Shown here: one piece after another, positions 52,305 to 61,986 of the stretch
Layout: every line of letters starts with the position of its first letter
How positions within the stretch are numbered: the stretch's first letter is position 1
Origin: Bacteroidales bacterium
GTDB taxonomy: Bacteria; Bacteroidota; Bacteroidia; Bacteroidales; GCA-2748055
Reading direction: 5' to 3'
NCBI GenBank assembly: GCA_040768485.1
Contig: JAXGMU010000001.1
Coordinates: 63,079-127,078 of the forward strand
DNA: 64,000 nucleotides
The notes under the pieces: generated by a model
Told to the model about the DNA's origin: nothing
What the model saw: the letters and a program-made list of their open reading frames with translations, nothing else
Databases searched by the model: none
Program-made: the position numbers and the translations under genes

Positions 52305-52525
52305 TCAATCCAACTCTAGATCCAGGGCATACCGGATTGCCTCCTCCAGGTCCATCGCCCGGCCTTCCGACTCATATTGCAAAGTCAATTCCTCCCCCAG
52401 TTTTTCACGTGTTCCGACGATGTGTCGTTTTACCAGTTCCTGCCAGAATCCCATTCTCATGTTCTCCAATGACTCCGCCCCGGCTTTCCTGGATCCCTCA
52501 TTTACTGCTAAGCCTCTTTCATCTG
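52305..52525 (-). pseudogene. C-terminal remnant of a TPR/NTPase-type signalling protein
   Basis: Manual translation ...FWQELVKRHIVGTREKLGEELTLQYESEGRAMDLEEAIRYALDLELD*; no credible 5' part. Confidence 0.5.
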
Positions 52526-52539
52526 CTGGGACAGGAAGC

Positions 52540-52675
52540 GTTTGAATTGATTGATGAAAAAAGATCCAGTGGAGACCAGGAGGTACTGCTTGATGTATCT
52601 GGCCTGGAAAGCGGATTATACCTGCTGAAACTGGAAACGGATAAGGTATTCTGCACCAGGATAGTGGTGAAATAA
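52540..52675 (+). pseudogene. Orphan T9SS C-terminal domain remnant
   Basis: ELIDEKRSSGDQEVLLDVSGLESGLYLLKLETDKVFCTRIVVK* is the second half of a CTD. Confidence 0.6.
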
Positions 52676-52724: not shown

Positions 52725-52756
52725 TTTGACTTTCTGATAATATTATTATAGTTTTG
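52725..52756 (+). promoter_or_regulatory. Bacteroidota sigma-A promoter of padR
   Basis: TTTG (52725-52728), 20-nt spacer, TAGTTTTG (52749-52756). Confidence 0.7.
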
Positions 52757-52782
52757 TAATATAAAAGTATAAAGTATATACA

Positions 52783-53154
52783 ATGATGAAGAATAAAATT
52801 CCGGGAGAAATGTTAAAAGGCAGTCTGAAGTCGATCGTACTGAAGCTGCTGGCAGAGAACGATAAAATGTATGGTTATGAAATAACCAGGAAGGTAGAGG
52901 AACTTTCTGAAGGAAAGATCCAGCTTACCTATGGTGCGTTGTATCCTGTTCTGCACAAGCTCGAAAAAGACGGGAACCTGTTGACAGAGTCACAAAACGT
53001 AAATAACAGGACGAGGATCTACTATCGACTTACCCCAAAAGGCAAAAGCGTTGCCAAAGAAAAAATCGAGGAACTGAAAAACTACATGGAAACCCTGAAA
53101 GTACTTCTTCAACCAAACCCCGCCCTGCAGTATGTACCGGTTAAAGCCAGGTGA
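52783..53154 (+). CDS. PadR-family transcriptional regulator
   Basis: LKGSL, MYGYEI, GALYPVLHKLE, RIYYRLTPKG. Confidence 0.93.
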   Translation: MMKNKIPGEMLKGSLKSIVLKLLAENDKMYGYEITRKVEELSEGKIQLTYGALYPVLHKLEKDGNLLTESQNVNNRTRIYYRLTPKGKSVAKEKIEELKNYMETLKVLLQPNPALQYVPVKAR

Positions 53155-54607
53155 CATTGAGCTGATCAGGTTGGATATCAGCCGGCAGCGGGTGACCTAT
53201 TCCCATCTGTTGGATGACCTGGTTGATCATGTTTGCTGCGATGTGGAAGCTGAGATGGATGAAGGGCTCCCGTTCACCCAGGCCTATGAGAATGTGAGGT
53301 CGAGGATTGGATTGAACAGGTTTAAAAAGATCCAGGAAGAGACTTTAATGCTGATTGATAAAAATTATAAATCCATGAAAACATTTATGAAGATCTTTGG
53401 GGTTCTGGCCCCATCGTTAATGGCAGTGGCTGCATTGTTTAAAATACAGCACTGGCCGGGGGGAGGCATCATGATGAGCCTGGGTTTCTTTTTTCTCTGT
53501 TTCTTCTTTCTGCCATCGGCTGTTTATGTGCTGAATGCAGAAAACAAAACAGATAAGAAACATCTGTTCATGAAGTTATCCGGACTGATCTCCTCTGTCA
53601 TTTTCCTGCTGGGCATCCTGTTCAAGCTGATGCACTGGCCAGGAGCAGGCATCGCATTGGTTACGGGCCTGATCATGCTGGGAACACTATTCCTGCCTTC
53701 ACTCATCATTGCGAAAATATCGGATGACAGGGGTGAAGGCAGACGGGCTGTATACCTGCTGGGCCTGTTTGCAGGGCTATTCTATCTTGCAGGTTTTCTT
53801 TTCAAAATCATGCACTGGCCAGGAGCAGGACTGGTCATTCTTATCGGGCTTATATTGTTTGCTATGATCTTTATGCCCCTGTATGTGTCTGCGCATTATA
53901 AAAATGAATCTTATGTCAGCGGTCATTTCATATTTATCATTGTCGGATCCATGATGGCAGTTCTGTTTTTGTCTTTTATGGCATTAACTGTCACAAAGGA
54001 TGTATTATCCGAATTCACTGCGGTAGAAGAACAAATGGATGATGTGCTGATCGATCTGGAAGACAAAAACAATGCATTTGTCCTGGAAACGATCAATACC
54101 TCGGCGAGAGGCGAAGTTGCAGCAGCGGCCCATCAAAAAACCGATGAAATTGAATCCTGGATCAACGATCTGAAGAGAGAACTGGTCATTGCCACTGAAC
54201 CGAACGAAGAAGCCATTTCAGGTGGAGCGATAGATTTCAGCAGGATCATACGAAAAGATGCAAACAATATTCCCACTGATATCCTGATCGTCCAGGGCAA
54301 AGCATCACAACTTGCCGGGAAAATCAGGGAATACAAAGAATATCTCTTATCTGAATCGGCTGATGCAGACCTTGCTTCAAAACTGGATCTGCTGCTTGAT
54401 ATATCCAAAGTCAAAGTCGCCGATGATGAAGAGATCCCCTGGGAAAATGCAACTTTTGAACATCGTACTTTTGTATCGATCCTGAATACCCTGACGACCA
54501 TTCAGATTGAAATAAGGCTGGCAGAGAAGGAGTTTTTGAAAAGTATTTCGGAAAAAAGGGATGTGCGCGGCCAGCAGATCATCGCAGAAGAAACCAGCTT
54601 AAAATAA
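53132..54607 (+). CDS. Membrane protein: PadR-associated N-terminal helical domain + 3 GldL-like TM hairpins + GldM-like TM/D1 domain
   Basis: DDLVDHVCCDVE..MDEG..F..A prefix; FKIQHWPG, FKLMHWPG, FKIMHWPG at about 60-aa period; FMALTVTKDVLSEF; KASQLAGKIREYKEYL...WENATFEH...LTTIQIEIRLAE. Confidence 0.8.
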   Translation: MYRLKPGDIELIRLDISRQRVTYSHLLDDLVDHVCCDVEAEMDEGLPFTQAYENVRSRIGLNRFKKIQEETLMLIDKNYKSMKTFMKIFGVLAPSLMAVAALFKIQHWPGGGIMMSLGFFFLCFFFLPSAVYVLNAENKTDKKHLFMKLSGLISSVIFLLGILFKLMHWPGAGIALVTGLIMLGTLFLPSLIIAKISDDRGEGRRAVYLLGLFAGLFYLAGFLFKIMHWPGAGLVILIGLILFAMIFMPLYVSAHYKNESYVSGHFIFIIVGSMMAVLFLSFMALTVTKDVLSEFTAVEEQMDDVLIDLEDKNNAFVLETINTSARGEVAAAAHQKTDEIESWINDLKRELVIATEPNEEAISGGAIDFSRIIRKDANNIPTDILIVQGKASQLAGKIREYKEYLLSESADADLASKLDLLLDISKVKVADDEEIPWENATFEHRTFVSILNTLTTIQIEIRLAEKEFLKSISEKRDVRGQQIIAEETSLK

Positions 54608-54617
54608 CCAGGAAGCC

Positions 54618-55607
54618 ATGAAAAACAAGATATATATATTCGGAATCGTACTGCTGATCCTGTTCACCATCGGGGCAATTTTTAAAATTAATCATTTTCC
54701 CGGGGCGGGAATCGTGATCACTGTTTCCCTGGTCCTCTTTTCACTGGTCTTTTGTCCGGTGGCACTCGCAAGCACCTACCGGGCAGAGGGAAAACATGCT
54801 TTTATTTACATGATCGGAGGCATCACCATCGCCATCACCTTTATCGGGGCCCTTTTCAAAATCATGCACTGGCCCGGGGCCGGCATCCTGCTGACGATTG
54901 GCATCGTTATACCCTTTATTCTGTTCCTGCCTGCTTACCTGATCTACCAGGGCAAAAAGGGGACCAGGAACATCAGGAACTTAATATTGGTACTGTTCCT
55001 GCTTGTCTATATCTCTGCCATGGATGCCTTAATGGCCCTGAATGTCAGTAAAGCCGTAATCGATGATGCAATACTTGTGAATGATCACTATAATTTGCTG
55101 ACCGCCTATTACCAGGGAAGTACGGAGGATCATCTGTCTGATCTTGACTCCGCGGAACTGACATCGGGCACGTTGCTTGCAGAGAGGACCGATCATCTGG
55201 TATCGGAAATCAACCAGCTGAAGGAAGCGCTTGTATTAGAAGTCTCAAAAGACAATGATGAAGCAGTCGGCAAGGAATCAGGAATTGACATTCGCAGGGT
55301 GACGGGGAAAGACAACAGGAACGTATCTTCCCATGTGATGATTGGCGAGAACAGGGCCCTGGATTTGAAACGAAGCATAAAACAATACAAGGATTTTCTG
55401 AATGAAATAACAGAAAACCAGCAGGTGGCTTTCATCGACAAATACCTTGATACGGATGATTTTGAATGGGAAGGAGAGGTGTATTCCTGGGAAGAGATTC
55501 ATTTTGAGGGGGCTATGCTTGTCTGGGCAATCAACCATCTGAACTCGCTTGAGTTCCGTGTGAGAATGGTAGAAGCTGCAATTGCGGAGGAGATGGCGCA
55601 TTCCTGA
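54618..55607 (+). CDS. Membrane protein: 2 GldL-like TM hairpins + GldM-like TM/D1 domain
   Basis: GAIFKINHFPG, GALFKIMHWPG; LMALNVSKAVID; RALDLKRSIKQYKDFL...WEEIHFEG...LNSLEFRVRMVE. Confidence 0.8.
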   Translation: MKNKIYIFGIVLLILFTIGAIFKINHFPGAGIVITVSLVLFSLVFCPVALASTYRAEGKHAFIYMIGGITIAITFIGALFKIMHWPGAGILLTIGIVIPFILFLPAYLIYQGKKGTRNIRNLILVLFLLVYISAMDALMALNVSKAVIDDAILVNDHYNLLTAYYQGSTEDHLSDLDSAELTSGTLLAERTDHLVSEINQLKEALVLEVSKDNDEAVGKESGIDIRRVTGKDNRNVSSHVMIGENRALDLKRSIKQYKDFLNEITENQQVAFIDKYLDTDDFEWEGEVYSWEEIHFEGAMLVWAINHLNSLEFRVRMVEAAIAEEMAHS

Positions 55608-55681: not shown

Positions 55682-57910
55682 ATGATGAATCCATTTCACC
55701 AGTTGATACTTCGCGTTGCATGCCTGCCGTTATTTCTGTCTTCCTTTTTCACCGGGCTTCATGCACAAGACCGCCAGCTGGTATGGGCCGATGAATTTAA
55801 CGGTGATATCATTGACCGGTCAACCTGGCAGTTTGAATCAGGTCCCACCAATGACAATGTACAGTATTATACAGACCGTCCTGATAATGCAAAGATCGTT
55901 GATGGGAAACTTCAGATCATCGCATTAAAAGAATCCTTCCAGGGCTATGAATATACTTCTGCCCATCTGAGGACCGGACAAACTCATTACTGGAAATACG
56001 GACGGATAGAAGCCAGGATCAAGGTACCTGGCACCCCCGGGTTTGTCCCTGCCTTCTGGATGCTTCCAGTTGACAATCTGTACGGATGGTGGCCCCTCAG
56101 CGGAGAAATCGACATCATGGAGCATCCTTCCAATGAAGTCACCCGCATATACGGAACCGTGCATACCGAAAAGTACAATCTGTTTTCGGGTTCCGAGCCG
56201 CCCCGGGGAGGGATTACAGAAATTCCGGATGCGGAAACTGCCTTTCACATATATGCCATTGAGTGGAGCCCGGATAAGATTGATTTTTTCGTGGATGAGC
56301 AGAAGTATTACTCTTTTGAGAATGATGCTGGTGCTTCTGATACCTGGCCGTTCGATCAATCCTTCTATATCATCCTGAACCTGGCTGTCGGGGGTGGGTG
56401 GGTAGGTTCTCCGGATGAAACCTCCATATTCCCAGCAGTCATGGAGGTGGATTATGTAAGGGTATACCAGGAAGCTGGTGAATTATCCGTTCAGGGACCG
56501 GATTTCGTTACCTCTCAGGAAAAGGGAAAGAAGTATTCACCGGGCGAATTGGAGGGGGCAACTTATCAATGGAGTGTTCCGGGTGATGCACAGATCGTAT
56601 CGGGTCAGGGGACATGGGAAGTCACGGTGGACTGGGGAATATTCGGGGGAAGTATCAGTGCAGCAATCACCACAGGTACGGGTACATTTGTTACGTCCCT
56701 GCCGGTGAAGGTCGCTCCCAATTATGTAAAGAATCCGGGATTTGAAAAAGGGGTGAAATTCTGGAATCAATCGGCCGGCTACCCTGCCAAAGCGAATTTT
56801 AATTTGTCAACGGATACTGTTCACAAAGGGGATCAATCGCTTTATGTGGAGGTGACAGAACCGGGTGGCAATCCGTGGGATGTGCAATTGTCCCAGCGGG
56901 ATCTGGTGCTGAAGGGGGGCACCACATACCACGCCGCCTTTTGGGCCAAGGCAGAGGGTAACCAGGGCCAAATCACTGCTGCGGTCATTCACCAAAATGA
57001 CTATTCCCTTGTAGCGAAAAAAGATTTTACTATCTCCCCTGACTGGGCAGCATATGAATTTGATTTCACGGTACCTACTACCCTGGATGCTGCATTCAAT
57101 ATAGACCTGGGAGGTGAGACCGGAGAATACTACTTTGATGATTTTACCCTGAATACCCAACAACTTGCCGAACTGAACCTGTTGAATAATCCTGATTTCA
57201 TTGAGAATGATGAAGGCTGGGGCCTGGTAACGCTATCAGGTGCTGAAGCAGCAGGATCGGTGGAGGAAGGGGAGTATATAATTAGGATCATGAATTCCGG
57301 AGCAAATCCCTGGGATATCTATTTCGGCCAGAACGGACTTGTGATTGAAAGTGGATTTGAGTACAGGGTTTCCTTTGATGCATATTCAGATACCCCAAGG
57401 CAGATCACCGCACTGGTGGGGAAAGATGCAGAGCCATGGACGGTTTACAGCGGTGAGCAGCTCATCCCGCTCACCACTGAAAAGCAAACGTACAGTTATT
57501 CTTTTACCATGACGGAGCCTGCGGATAACGGGGCGCGGCTGGGTTTTGATATCGGAGGTGATGCGAATACTGTGTATTTCGACAATATCCAATTGAAGAA
57601 AGTGGGATCTCCGAACACATCGATCAATCCGGCCGTTACCCGGATAAAATCTATGTCTGTCCTGCACGTTTATCCCAATCCGTTTTACCAGGAAACTTCT
57701 TTTTACTATTTCTTAGATGAGGCTGCCAGCACCACCCTGAGTCTATTCAACCCGGGCGGGCAGGAGATAAGATCCTTGGTCAGCGGCTACCAGCAGGAAG
57801 GGAATCACAAGGTTACATGGCGCGCTGAAGGATTACCCGCGGGATTATATATATACCGGTTTGAATCCGGTGAAGTTTCGGAAATAGGGAAACTGTTTCT
57901 GCTTCAATGA
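55682..57910 (+). CDS. GH16 beta-1,3-glucanase-like enzyme with Ig/PKD-like domain, two CBM4/9 modules and T9SS CTD
   Basis: LVWADEF, PAFWML, WPLSGEIDIME catalytic motif, ILNLAVGG; two NPxF...NPWD modules; VYPNPF...GLPAGLY. Confidence 0.92.
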   Translation: MMNPFHQLILRVACLPLFLSSFFTGLHAQDRQLVWADEFNGDIIDRSTWQFESGPTNDNVQYYTDRPDNAKIVDGKLQIIALKESFQGYEYTSAHLRTGQTHYWKYGRIEARIKVPGTPGFVPAFWMLPVDNLYGWWPLSGEIDIMEHPSNEVTRIYGTVHTEKYNLFSGSEPPRGGITEIPDAETAFHIYAIEWSPDKIDFFVDEQKYYSFENDAGASDTWPFDQSFYIILNLAVGGGWVGSPDETSIFPAVMEVDYVRVYQEAGELSVQGPDFVTSQEKGKKYSPGELEGATYQWSVPGDAQIVSGQGTWEVTVDWGIFGGSISAAITTGTGTFVTSLPVKVAPNYVKNPGFEKGVKFWNQSAGYPAKANFNLSTDTVHKGDQSLYVEVTEPGGNPWDVQLSQRDLVLKGGTTYHAAFWAKAEGNQGQITAAVIHQNDYSLVAKKDFTISPDWAAYEFDFTVPTTLDAAFNIDLGGETGEYYFDDFTLNTQQLAELNLLNNPDFIENDEGWGLVTLSGAEAAGSVEEGEYIIRIMNSGANPWDIYFGQNGLVIESGFEYRVSFDAYSDTPRQITALVGKDAEPWTVYSGEQLIPLTTEKQTYSYSFTMTEPADNGARLGFDIGGDANTVYFDNIQLKKVGSPNTSINPAVTRIKSMSVLHVYPNPFYQETSFYYFLDEAASTTLSLFNPGGQEIRSLVSGYQQEGNHKVTWRAEGLPAGLYIYRFESGEVSEIGKLFLLQ

Positions 57911-57982
57911 ACCGGAATGAATCCCTGCATGAATCTTTTGCATGAACTTTCTTAACTTGTCCTTCTTATTAAAATCTCCATT

Positions 57983-59494
57983 ATGAAAAAGTCAAGAATC
58001 ATTTTCGCATTCCTGATGTTAACAGGGTTGTTCTCTGGTACACTGTTATCGCAGGAACCCGCAGTAATCAAGATCGATTTTGATCGGAAAATAGGTGAAA
58101 TCGATCCGAAAATCTATGGTGGTTTTCTTGAACCCATCCGCACTGTGGTTTACGGCACTTTATATGATCCGTCATCTCCCTTTGCTGACGAGAACGGTTT
58201 CAGGAAAGATTATATGGAGCTGATCAGGGAATTGAAAGTACCCGTGATAAGATGGCCGGGCGGAAACTATATGTCGGGATATAACTGGAAAGACGGAATC
58301 GGACCGAAGGAACAACGGCCTGCAAGACTGGACCTGGCATGGCACCAGATTGAAAACAACCATATGGGAACGGATGAGTATGTAAAATTCTGCAACCTGG
58401 TCGGTGCCGAAAATTTCATCTGTATCAATGCCGGAACAGGGACGCTTGACGATGCAAGGCACTGGGTTGAATATTGTAACTACGAAAAGGGAACGTATTA
58501 TTCTGACCTCAGGAGGGAGTACGGGAATGAAGAGCCTTTTAAAATAAAATACTGGGCCCTTGGAAACGAAATAGACGGACCCTGGCAAATGGGGCAGAAA
58601 AGTGTCGAAGACTATGTCAAGTTTGCCATGGAGGCTGCTAAACTGATCAGGTTGGTAGACAGGGATGTAAAACTGATTGCTTCCGGTGCATCGAATTACA
58701 GGCCCGCGGATAACAGGTGGATTGACTGGAATGATTATGTACTGGATCGAATGATTGGCACCATTGATTACATTTCTGTTCACAGATATGTTACCGAGGC
58801 ATTGAAAGAGGACCGGGGCTTTTCCAGCATGGTATCCCTGAACCTTGATCTTGATCAGAAGATAGAAATGGTGGAAGCCCTGATCCTGAAGGCGATGATG
58901 AAATCGGAATCAGAAAGACCGGTATATATTTCATTTGATGAATGGGGAGCCCGGGGAAGGGGCCTTTTGGGTTCATTGATGGTTGCTCTTCATCTGAACT
59001 CGTTTGTCAGGCATGCCGATATTGTAAAAATGGCAAATCTGACAATGTTATCAAGTCTTGTGGGGAATTCGCCGGATGGTGATTTCAGGAATACACTGTT
59101 TCAGGCATTCTATCTCTATTCCAACAACTGTCATGGTACTTCTCTTGATGTAACGACCAAATGTGAAACATACAACAATGAAATATTTAATGATATCCCT
59201 TATCTGGACGTTTCTGCCGCATTGAATGAACCGGAAAAAACGCTGGTGGTAAATGTCGTTAACAGGCATGAAACGAATGGCATTGAAACGGATATCCTTC
59301 TGCAGACAGGTGAATTTACGGGGAATGCCACTGTTCACGAGGTAAACGGTGAAACCATTGAGGCAACGAATACAAAGTCCGAGGAGGGTGTAGGGATCGT
59401 CAGTGAGAATATTAAATTCAAGGGCAATACCATCCGTTACACTTTCCCTGCACATTCAATGACTCAGTTTGAAATTCCAATCAGGTCATTGTAA
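57983..59494 (+). CDS. Alpha-L-arabinofuranosidase, GH51
   Basis: IYGGFLE, IRWPGGN, WALGNEIDGPWQMG, ISFDEW, VKMAN. Confidence 0.93.
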   Translation: MKKSRIIFAFLMLTGLFSGTLLSQEPAVIKIDFDRKIGEIDPKIYGGFLEPIRTVVYGTLYDPSSPFADENGFRKDYMELIRELKVPVIRWPGGNYMSGYNWKDGIGPKEQRPARLDLAWHQIENNHMGTDEYVKFCNLVGAENFICINAGTGTLDDARHWVEYCNYEKGTYYSDLRREYGNEEPFKIKYWALGNEIDGPWQMGQKSVEDYVKFAMEAAKLIRLVDRDVKLIASGASNYRPADNRWIDWNDYVLDRMIGTIDYISVHRYVTEALKEDRGFSSMVSLNLDLDQKIEMVEALILKAMMKSESERPVYISFDEWGARGRGLLGSLMVALHLNSFVRHADIVKMANLTMLSSLVGNSPDGDFRNTLFQAFYLYSNNCHGTSLDVTTKCETYNNEIFNDIPYLDVSAALNEPEKTLVVNVVNRHETNGIETDILLQTGEFTGNATVHEVNGETIEATNTKSEEGVGIVSENIKFKGNTIRYTFPAHSMTQFEIPIRSL

Positions 59495-59598
59495 TTTTGT
59501 CTTAATGATTCAGAAGCAGTAATCCGCAACTGGTCCCGGTCACGTAACGTGGAAAAAAATTCCACGTCTTTTATGTGAATTATTTAACAGACAAATCC

Positions 59599-61986
59599 AT
59601 GTTACTCCGGGACTTTCTGGCTTCATTCAGATTCATCAGACGATACAAGTCATTTGCCATCATCAACATCAGTGGATTGACCATTGGTATTTTTTGTTGC
59701 CTGTTGATCATTCTGTATATACACTCCGAGCTGGGTTTCGACAGGTTTCACGAAAACGGAAAGAACATATACAGGGTGGTGATGCACCAGCCCGGGAACC
59801 AGGTTACAGGAAGTAGTTCCGATTGGTGGGTGGTGTCTCCTGCTATCCTGAAACCCACCTGGGAAAATGAGCTGCCTGAAGTGGATCTCATTACCAGGAC
59901 TACTACTAAAATGTGGAACTTTAAGCTCGAAGACCAATACCTCAGTGAAGAGGTCCTGGTTGTCGATCCCGAGTTCCTGGAGATCTTTTCATTTCCTCTG
60001 GTGGCCGGTGACAAAAGCAGTGCGTTGGGTTCCCCTAATTCCATCGTGCTCTCTCAAAAGGCGGGACTAAGATATTTTGGTGAGGAAGATCCCATGGGGC
60101 AGCAAATGATCCTGAATGATGGGCGTCAGCTTACGGTATCAGGGATTCTGGAGGAAATTCCCGGGAATTCCCATCTGCAGTTTGATATTCTTACCTCATT
60201 TTCGACCCTTGAGTCAATCCTCAACCGGAGTCTTCTGAGCGAGAACTGGTTGAATAATTCCTACCGGACCTATCTGACCCTTCATGATAACAGCGACCCG
60301 GAGCTCCTTGATGCAAAATTGAGGAAATACGATCTTGTGGGTTTCAATGGCAACACCTGGTCATTCCACCTGCAACCCCTGTATGATATCCACTTCAACC
60401 GGGATACGTGGGGCACCGGGGATAAAGGGACCCTGTTCATCTTTCTTACAGCCGGTATTTTTATCCTGTTTATCGTATGTTTTAATTACCTGAACCTGTA
60501 CATCGCGCACTACAGAACGAGGATCAGGGATGTTTCCATCCGGAAACTCCTGGGAGCTCAGCGGCCGGTGCTGATCCGTCAGTTCTTCAGTGAATCCCTG
60601 AATATTGTACTGATTTCTTACCTGGCCGCTCTGATGTTGGTCTGGCTGGTCCTGCCCATGTTCAATTCCACACTGGAACGGAAACTTGATTTCCACTCAA
60701 TCTGGAACTGGCAGGTATTGTTGGCCAGCATAGGGCTGATCGCCCTGATGGCTTTTGTCTCGGGCGTTTACCCGGCTCTTTATCTTTCCCGGTACAAGGT
60801 GGCCGAGACCATCAGGGGTGGTATCATCAACCTTTCCAGGGGAGGAAAGCAGCTCAGACAGTCCATCGTGATTATCCAGTTTTCCATCTCCATTGCGCTC
60901 ATCATTGGTTCGGCGACCATGATCAGGCAATTATCCTATGCCCGTGATATGGATCTGGGCTATCTTAAGGAGAATATTGTTTACCTGGACCTGATCAACT
61001 TGTTCTATGCCGAGGAATTCAACCTGATGAATAAAATGGACATCTTCAAACAGGAACTGTTGAATCATCCGGATGTCCGGTCAGTTGCCTTTTCCACCGG
61101 CATCCCGTCGATGGTCGGATGGTCCAACATACCCGTATGGGAAGGAAAGCATGAAGAAGATAATCCTTTCTTTTACAGGATGATCGTGGATCACGATTTC
61201 ATGAACCTGTACGGCATTCAGCTGGAAAAAGGAAGATACTTTCAACCGGATATGAAGTCTGACAATGGGCATGCATATATTATCAACAGGGCCGCTGCAG
61301 AGAGGATGGGCCTGGAGTCCCCCATTGGGGCAGGTTTCGGATTCGACGGGAATCTTGGCACCGTAGTGGGATTGACAGAAGATTTTCACTTTGAATCCCT
61401 GCACAATCCCATTACTCCCCTCGGTATAGGCGTTGCAGATGAATACTACTGGCAGTTTGTCTCTCTCAAGGTCAACAGTGCAAACCTGGCCAAAACCCTG
61501 GGTGATATCGAGAACATCTGGAAGAAATATGTGCCGGGCATCCCAATGGATTATTCATTGCTGGACGATCGCCTGAATTCCCTTTACAGGGAGGACAGGC
61601 AGCTTTCGAGAAGCATGAATTATCTCTCGCTCGTTGCCCTGTTCATATCCTGCCTTGGGATATTTGGTCTCATGTCGCTGTCACTCAGGGAAAAGTCAAA
61701 GGAGATCAGCATCCGGAAGGTGATGGGAGCCTCCGGAGCAGCCTTGATGAATTTCCTTTTGAGGGACTCCGTGAAGATCATTCTGGTGTCCACGGTCTTT
61801 GGCGGCGTATTCGGATGGTATCTTTCCAGGGAATGGCTGCAGAATTTTGCCTTCGCCTGCAGGTTTGGATTCGGAATGATCGCCCTTTCTGCCCTGCTGG
61901 CATTTTTCATCTATTTTTTCATGATCAGCTTCAGGCTGCTCGGGGCCATCAAAGCCAATCCCGGAAATTCATTGCGACTGGATTGA
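59599..61986 (+). CDS. MacB/FtsX-family ABC transporter permease (duplicated-domain type)
   Basis: INISGLTIG, LQPLYDIH, IRKLLGA, QFSIS, DFHFESL, ISCLGIFGL, IRKVMGA, ANPGNSLR. Confidence 0.92.
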   Translation: MLLRDFLASFRFIRRYKSFAIINISGLTIGIFCCLLIILYIHSELGFDRFHENGKNIYRVVMHQPGNQVTGSSSDWWVVSPAILKPTWENELPEVDLITRTTTKMWNFKLEDQYLSEEVLVVDPEFLEIFSFPLVAGDKSSALGSPNSIVLSQKAGLRYFGEEDPMGQQMILNDGRQLTVSGILEEIPGNSHLQFDILTSFSTLESILNRSLLSENWLNNSYRTYLTLHDNSDPELLDAKLRKYDLVGFNGNTWSFHLQPLYDIHFNRDTWGTGDKGTLFIFLTAGIFILFIVCFNYLNLYIAHYRTRIRDVSIRKLLGAQRPVLIRQFFSESLNIVLISYLAALMLVWLVLPMFNSTLERKLDFHSIWNWQVLLASIGLIALMAFVSGVYPALYLSRYKVAETIRGGIINLSRGGKQLRQSIVIIQFSISIALIIGSATMIRQLSYARDMDLGYLKENIVYLDLINLFYAEEFNLMNKMDIFKQELLNHPDVRSVAFSTGIPSMVGWSNIPVWEGKHEEDNPFFYRMIVDHDFMNLYGIQLEKGRYFQPDMKSDNGHAYIINRAAAERMGLESPIGAGFGFDGNLGTVVGLTEDFHFESLHNPITPLGIGVADEYYWQFVSLKVNSANLAKTLGDIENIWKKYVPGIPMDYSLLDDRLNSLYREDRQLSRSMNYLSLVALFISCLGIFGLMSLSLREKSKEISIRKVMGASGAALMNFLLRDSVKIILVSTVFGGVFGWYLSREWLQNFAFACRFGFGMIALSALLAFFIYFFMISFRLLGAIKANPGNSLRLD

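Follow-up and report, generated by a model that had tools for sequence, protein, structure and literature searches.

What do two proteins that resemble the subunits of the GldL/GldM membrane motor do when they are encoded directly behind a PadR-family regulator? This question is raised by a tight three-gene unit, consisting of padR, gene A and gene B, on the + strand of a 64,000-nucleotide stretch of a Bacteroidales genome (GenBank assembly GCA_040768485.1, contig JAXGMU010000001.1, positions 63,079 to 127,078; this whole stretch is called the window below). Gene A starts 23 nt inside padR and gene B begins 10 nt after gene A (Table 1). We consider it probable that proteins A and B form a rotor-locked, proton-uncoupled membrane sensor derived from GldLM, and that the N-terminal domain of protein A would pull PadR off its operator.

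Both proteins match the Pfam family GldL_N (PF22827) above the cut-off, in three stretches for protein A (E 2.7e-16) and two for protein B (E 1.1e-13), and phmmer and Foldseek match them to the solved motors 7SAU, 7SAT and 7CMG. They score under both TIGR cut-offs for true GldL and GldM (TIGR03513 and TIGR03517).

The GldL-like hairpins lack the proton-carrying residues

Residue E49 of GldL is described as essential and strictly conserved (PMC8986121), and the published set of motor core residues comprises GldL E49, GldL Y13, GldM R9 and Y17. We counted the E49 position from the loop His of each hairpin (H+15), with Y13 at H-17, R9 at N-18 and Y17 at N-10. Proteins A and B contain five hairpins of the type K-x-x-H-[WF]-P-G, three in A and two in B. 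The residues at H+15 are L, L, F, F and P for A1, A2, A3, B1 and B2, respectively, and the genome's own GldL has Glu at this position. Hairpin B1 could be aligned with that GldL without gaps from the His through the second transmembrane helix (TM2; hhalign, prob 97.6), and here Phe faces the Glu. The sequence-only reading of this DNA had claimed that the hairpins are without the essential glutamate; the strings it quoted are found in the translations, and none of the five hairpins has an acidic residue at the position equivalent to E49.

The same holds for related loci. We collected species-level loci, taking the 80 best of 514 matches, and Glu was seen at H+15 in 0 of their 396 hairpin positions (one position being a gap), so its loss is not a matter of chance. 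It was also missing from all 57 positions in class-wide loci and occurred in 1/279 among 138 representatives. The other core residues follow the same trend. No Tyr was found at H-17 (0/396) and no Arg at N-18 (0/80 in A and 0/78 in B), while Tyr at N-10 was seen in 1/80 A proteins and is outside the seven commonest residues in B. The equivalent of the loop residue H30 is present in 389/396 hairpins, and Lys or Arg at the position of K27 in 395/396. The proton layer (E49, Y13, R9 and Y17) is lost and the K27/H30 contact layer at the periplasmic interface retained.

A lone Asp in the membrane helix of protein B

The only acid noted by the sequence-only reading was an Asp in the GldM-like helix of the second protein. 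This residue, Asp136 of protein B, is the sole Asp or Glu within the 12 membrane-core windows of A and B taken together. The 19-mer of highest hydrophobicity (residues 122–140, mean hydropathy 2.45) includes this Asp, and the periplasmic Asn of an ALNVS-type motif follows six residues later. Asp136 aligns with Thr21 of the genome's GldM and is placed 12 residues periplasm-ward of the R9/E49 level.

If the complex still coupled ion flow to a short rocking movement, Asp136 or the polar Ser, Thr and Asn residues could be a moved proton or sodium site. The location of Asp136 within a membrane helix fits this idea, as does its conservation in 46/46 homologues with at least 65% identity. The picture changes with distance: among the 119 homologues the Asp is kept in 3/14 at 45–65% identity and in 7/59 below 45%. 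The raw homologue list including the query has it in 57/120, but 46 of these are at least 65% identical to the query. Of the 78 species-level loci with a visible gene B, 2 have Asp at position B136, 49 have Ser and 15 have Thr, and in 60/78 no membrane-core window of either chain holds any acid. Other membrane-core acids are scattered, the commonest being a Glu at A219 (TM1 of hairpin A3) in 7/78 loci.

A second position, B74, is Asp in 17 sequences of the 120-sequence homologue set, and never together with Asp136. Asp is thus found at B74 or B136 in 74/120 homologues and at both in none. The two sites alternate as Asn-Asp versus Asp-Ser/Thr/Asn, and both are near the periplasmic side. Since the two Asp residues never co-occur, a role of some kind is favoured for Asp136, and the ion-coupled alternative can draw on the same pattern. 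The swap also fits a hydrogen bond in helix packing, and we infer that B74 and B136 form a swapped hydrogen-bond pair in related lineages, with Asp136 likely a lineage-specific helix-packing residue. With R9 lost, the helix tethered (see below), domains D2–D4 absent and most loci free of membrane-core acid, an ion-coupled complex is very improbable.

The relocation of the titratable site to the central helix, which had been suggested together with the loss of the glutamate, was therefore rejected as a family feature: Asp136 is rare and most loci are acid-free in the membrane core. An unconserved Asp is also one of the outcomes that the sequence-only reading had itself named as refuting the idea. 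The other half of that suggestion, namely that the complex is probably not a proton motor, agrees with the absence of E49, Y13 and R9, the near absence of Y17, the tethered helix and the missing D2–D4.

Comparison with the GldL5GldM2 motor

The motor core is reported to have the stoichiometry GldL5GldM2 (10.1101/2022.01.28.478170). The GldL5GldM2 and PorL5PorM2 motors, which serve type IX secretion and gliding (6YS8, 7SAT, 7SAU, 7SAX and 7SAZ; PF22827 and PF12081), and the A/B pair share the same total of five GldL_N hairpins and two GldM helix/D1 units, divided between the two chains as 3+2 hairpins and 1+1 GldM helix and D1 in 77/78 loci. They also share the K27/H30 equivalents, a compatible membrane topology and the D1 fold. 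Unlike in the motors, hairpins and GldM helix are fused within the two chains, so that the GldM chain is not free, and E49, E59, Y13 and R9 are missing and Y17 nearly so. The GldL cytoplasmic domain and D2–D4 are also absent, both chains stopping after D1, and the genes lie beside padR and a GH16 enzyme and not beside gldK or gldN.

The model of protein A (predicted local distance difference test (pLDDT) 88.5, predicted template modelling score (pTM) 0.66) has a loop of ∼7 residues joining the last hairpin to the GldM helix. As this would tether the helix to a ring hairpin, continuous rotation of the GldM helix within the ring seems implausible. Residues 77–105 are modelled as a single helix, a conserved cytoplasmic linker that runs into TM1.

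An intact gldK-gldL-gldM-gldN run lies apart from this locus on contig C6 of the genome, with Glu at H+15 of its GldL, and Arg at N-18 and Tyr at N-10 of its GldM; the names gldK and gldN were assigned from gene order and sequence features. A full GldL was also found in 5/5 other carriers tested. We considered whether A and B are a broken or pseudogene copy of gldLM and rejected this, as both reading frames are uninterrupted, related loci share the layout and the genome has a genuine gldKLMN run elsewhere.

The N-terminal domain and its predicted contact with PadR

Protein A begins with a small cytoplasmic domain, with helices at residues 6–18, 24–42 and 48–59 in the full-length model; the model of the domain on its own has a pLDDT of 72.5. 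Residues D32, H33, C35 and C36 are found in 80/80 loci. The corresponding DHxCC motif (53225–53239) is present in 136/138 representatives. It lies where PadR is predicted to bind and could serve as a metal or redox site. The top fold match among 48161 chains was the DUF1048 structure 2o4t (Z 7.1, root mean square deviation 3.5, 83 aligned), a match that is within the background for helical domains and tied with ranks 2–3. Foldseek with the domain gave no match at E ≤0.001, the HAAS-type Pfam models gave no match to protein A, and perm_prefix_1 (NF038403) matched weakly in 6/77 (best E 1.1e-4). Gly60 is kept in 77/80 and coincides with a helix break in the full-length model, while the Pro of the HAAS GxP motif is absent, Pro not being among the four commonest residues two positions past Gly60.

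DUF1048 belongs to the HAAS superfamily, whose members are reported to be coupled to a stand-alone PadR in every case; the two have been proposed to form membrane signalling dyads (10.1101/2020.09.24.301986). Our locus shares with the HAAS-PadR systems of Ravi et al. (DUF1700, DUF1129 and DUF1048) a stand-alone padR beside a membrane protein starting with a small helical domain, the swapping of this N-terminal domain onto different bodies, and DUF1048 as the top fold match. It differs in its sensor body, which comes from GldL/GldM and is not listed among the HAAS fusions in the part of that paper available to us (10.1101/2020.09.24.301986), and in its N-domain, where DHxCC is invariant and the Gly of GxP is kept but not the Pro. 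The N-domain and padR would work like a HAAS-PadR system; because the GxP Pro is missing, we do not file them as a proven member.

A complex model of the PadR dimer with the N-domain scored 0.74, against 0.49 for the best of three controls. The mark for such scores was reached by 116/157 solved and 2/215 mismatched pairs. The runs agree in at least 92% of contacts and the partner pLDDT is at least 83. In the model, N-domain residues 26–37 contact PadR Y30–Y32, Y54 and the wing residues 77–79. By spacing, Y32 and Y54 match the signature DNA-binding tyrosines Y20 and Y42 of Bacillus subtilis PadR, and in both LftR and B. subtilis PadR these tyrosines and the wing are described as forming the surface that binds DNA (PMC6457526). 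Because the modelled interface covers the DNA-binding face of PadR, we predict that the N-terminal domain acts as an anti-repressor.

PadR-2 repressors such as Listeria LftR have the same small single-domain PadR, the signature tyrosines and a palindromic operator 5' of their own gene (PMC6457526). They have another operator sequence, and our system is predicted to take its input from a membrane protein domain and not from a small ligand.

A palindrome at the predicted start site

Upstream of padR, the family shares the palindrome ATATATAAG-N3-CTTATATAT. With up to three mismatches it was found in 67/76 upstream regions, versus a mean of 0.38 and a maximum of 2 in 50 dinucleotide shuffles. In 60/76 loci a TAnnTTT[GA] box lies immediately before it. 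In the window, a TTTG at 52725 may be the -33 element belonging to this box. A sigma-70 promoter scan did no better than chance (5 found versus 5.6 expected), using a model that does not cover the promoters of this phylum. TAnnTTTG is the -7 promoter element of the phylum, placed at -12 to -5 (PMC9723704). As the palindrome overlaps the predicted transcription start, PadR is given the role of a repressor, which would act on its own promoter at the start site.

Scanning the genome with a matrix of the palindrome gave seven sites above 14 bits. Ranks 1 and 2 lie in tandem 5' of the padR on contig C3, rank 3 lies 5' of the operon on contig C42, where a TPR gene precedes padR, and rank 5 is the window site. 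Four of the five best sites in the genome thus lie 5' of three operons with padR and an N-domain gene, which we count in favour of a PadR operator. The remaining three sites (C1:192653, C14:47859 and C7:26920) are weak and AT-rich. A relaxed version of the pattern, which was chosen post hoc and has no shuffle control, fits 26/28 class-wide loci.

The predicted operator also bears on the sign of regulation. The membrane protein could be a PadR-linked sensor that keeps PadR bound to the membrane or sets it free on cleavage, giving the opposite sign. Release of a transcription factor upon conformational change is proposed in the HAAS paper (10.1101/2020.09.24.301986), and the invariant Cys35/Cys36 could form a redox or metal switch that replaces the periplasmic input. 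A palindrome over the predicted start fits a repressor, though, the modelled interface would block DNA binding, and the 18 largest clusters of neighbouring genes, of which only some are annotated, include no conspicuous protease family. Holding or release of PadR is thus improbable.

Distribution and variants of the family

In 78/80 loci padR lies directly 5' of gene A, and the other two are at contig ends. The N-terminal domain and three hairpins are present in gene A of all 80 loci, a property that the query selected for. Gene B, which was not the query, is visible in 78 loci and has two hairpins in 77; in the exception (L078), calling the gene from its first ATG gives one hairpin. Behind gene B, 30/80 loci encode a TolC-family outer-membrane protein (e.g., L024:7451–10377), often together with a periplasmic adaptor and a MacB-type permease; the TolC-family protein is absent around the window locus. 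This neighbour may be the synteny of one clade, and the palindrome was not found before the TolC-type exporter in these 30/80 loci.

On a wider scale, the N-terminal domain was found in 76/301 genomes of an even sample of the class and in 1323 clusters at 50% identity. A search of 401 genomes of the phylum with PF22827 mostly gave ordinary GldL and was not used for the distribution. In the 29 best foreign class-wide loci padR is adjacent in 28. Two of the 29 have the 3+2 form, and 16 consist of one gene that includes a GldM-like part, two hairpins being detected in 15 of these; the rest have two hairpins without a GldM match (5), one hairpin only (4) or are seemingly split (2). Four loci (L103, L116, L117 and L119) have minimal forms of ∼140 aa, where padR is accompanied by the N-domain and one Glu-less GldL hairpin alone. 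These could form a ring only as homo-oligomers or with native GldL.

The genome itself has three pairs of padR and N-domain. Besides the window locus, contig C3 (102845–104400, - strand; L093) has padR and a single 406-aa gene with the N-domain, two Glu-less hairpins and a divergent GldM-like part. On contig C42 (4726–6894, + strand; L092) the palindrome is followed by a TPR gene, padR and a gene for a 318-aa membrane protein that carries the N-domain. This protein has a DHxAC variant of the domain, and its membrane body is without GldL hairpins or any Pfam match. As the N-domain sits on other bodies beside padR, including one without GldL hairpins, these loci support the interpretation as a sensor.

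The variants also allow another interpretation, in which A and B are effectors under PadR control, e.g., decoys that bind native GldL, GldM or GldKN to damp the motor, or membrane-protective proteins, with the N-domain serving feedback only. Native GldL is available in this genome and the tested carriers, the contact residues K27/H30 and D1 are retained, and the one- and two-hairpin forms cannot build a five-membered ring from two chains alone. The same N-domain and palindrome together with an unrelated membrane body in one genome are instead the pattern of a modular signalling domain, and the 3+2 pair has the full subunit count without native partners. We therefore regard effectors as unlikely, and retain the sensor as the preferred reading.

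A proposed membrane sensor

The sensor would work as follows. A and B would assemble into one non-rotating GldL5GldM2-like complex, and PadR would repress the promoter via the palindrome. A periplasmic or envelope cue would then shift the two D1 domains, and the kept Lys/His loops would relay this shift to hairpin A1, the first helix of which runs on from the conserved linker of the N-domain. The exposed N-domain would finally capture PadR and lift the repression, giving positive feedback. The direction of the change, from motor to sensor, is inferred.

Several points weigh against this reading. The counts over the 80 loci are not independent, as the loci are related, and the 5:2 count marks one branch of the family and not the whole. 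Neither the fold match at background level nor the missing GxP Pro speaks for HAAS. The calibration of the complex scores holds only roughly here, as the job differs from it. An unrelated control protein docked on PadR at 0.49, and the acidic helix may favour the basic face of PadR nonspecifically. Finally, the window's own copy of the palindrome is degenerate, with five mismatches, and the genome matrix scan did not establish a regulon beyond the operons with padR and an N-domain gene.

A broader version of the proposal is possible but rather doubtful. By fusion of rotor to stator, removal of the proton relay, retention of the mechanical D1-to-ring coupling and addition of a DNA-mimicking anti-repressor, Bacteroidia would have made a receptor out of an ion-driven rotary motor core. 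Forms with one or two hairpins would plug into native GldL/GldM and report the state of the type IX motor, the 3+2 pair would be self-contained, and the PadR binding mode might be general for HAAS-PadR.

If the sensor reading is true, the core of an ion motor with 5:2 stoichiometry has here been put to use in signalling. The pair would provide a natural two-chain GldLM scaffold whose five ring positions each have a sequence of their own and might be tested one by one. The modelled interface would also offer a concrete mechanism for the HAAS-PadR dyad, in which an acidic helix blocks the DNA-binding face; the dyad itself we found only as a comparative-genomics proposal. A literature search that did not extend to subscription papers gave no description of a GldL/GldM-like family linked to PadR, and the supplementary tables of the HAAS paper could list the fusion.

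Features of the locus and neighbouring genes

The features of the locus are collected in Table 1. The span of the sequence-only reading, 53380..55070, does not reach the promoter, padR or the N-terminal domain and leaves out most of the second D1.

Table 1. Predicted features of the padR, gene A and gene B unit (positions in the window).
Feature	Position	Strand	Evidence or remark
Predicted Bacteroidota sigma-A -7 box (TAnnTTTG)	52749..52756	+	Consensus match (PMC9723704)
Degenerate family palindrome, likely PadR operator	52759..52779	.	5/18 mismatches; overlaps predicted transcription start
padR, PadR-family winged-helix regulator, 123 aa, PadR-2 size	52783..53154	+	PF03551 E 1.3e-19
Gene A, 491 aa: N-terminal domain, 3 GldL-like hairpins, GldM-like helix and D1	53132..54607	+	
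Cytoplasmic HAAS-like helical domain of A, DHxCC, predicted PadR binder	53132..53377	+	
Hairpin A1 (His107), Leu at E49 position	53387..53524	+	
Hairpin A2 (His168), Leu at E49 position	53570..53707	+	
Hairpin A3 (His228), Phe at E49 position	53750..53887	+	
GldM-like membrane helix of A (no R9, no acid) and periplasmic D1	53927..54556	+	PF12081 E 2.6e-14; Foldseek 7sau_A E 1.2e-6
Gene B, 329 aa: 2 GldL-like hairpins, GldM-like helix and D1	54618..55607	+	
Hairpin B1 (His26), Phe at E49 position	54630..54767	+	
Hairpin B2 (His84), Pro at E49 position	54804..54941	+	Pro in 77/78 loci
GldM-like membrane helix of B, carries lineage-specific Asp136 (codon 55023-55025)	54981..55043	+	
Periplasmic GldM D1 of B, no D2-D4 after it	55044..55598	+	PF12081 E 3.5e-13

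On the 5' side, the end of the frame 52337–52675 resembles by eye the C-terminal sorting tail of a type IX substrate. No parent gene is obvious, and the frame is possibly a gene remnant. The genes 3' of gene B (55682–61986, + strand) are not among the conserved neighbours of related loci. They encode a GH16 and CBM4/9 protein with a weak match to a type IX sorting domain, an arabinofuranosidase-like enzyme and an 803-aa duplicated MacB/FtsX permease.

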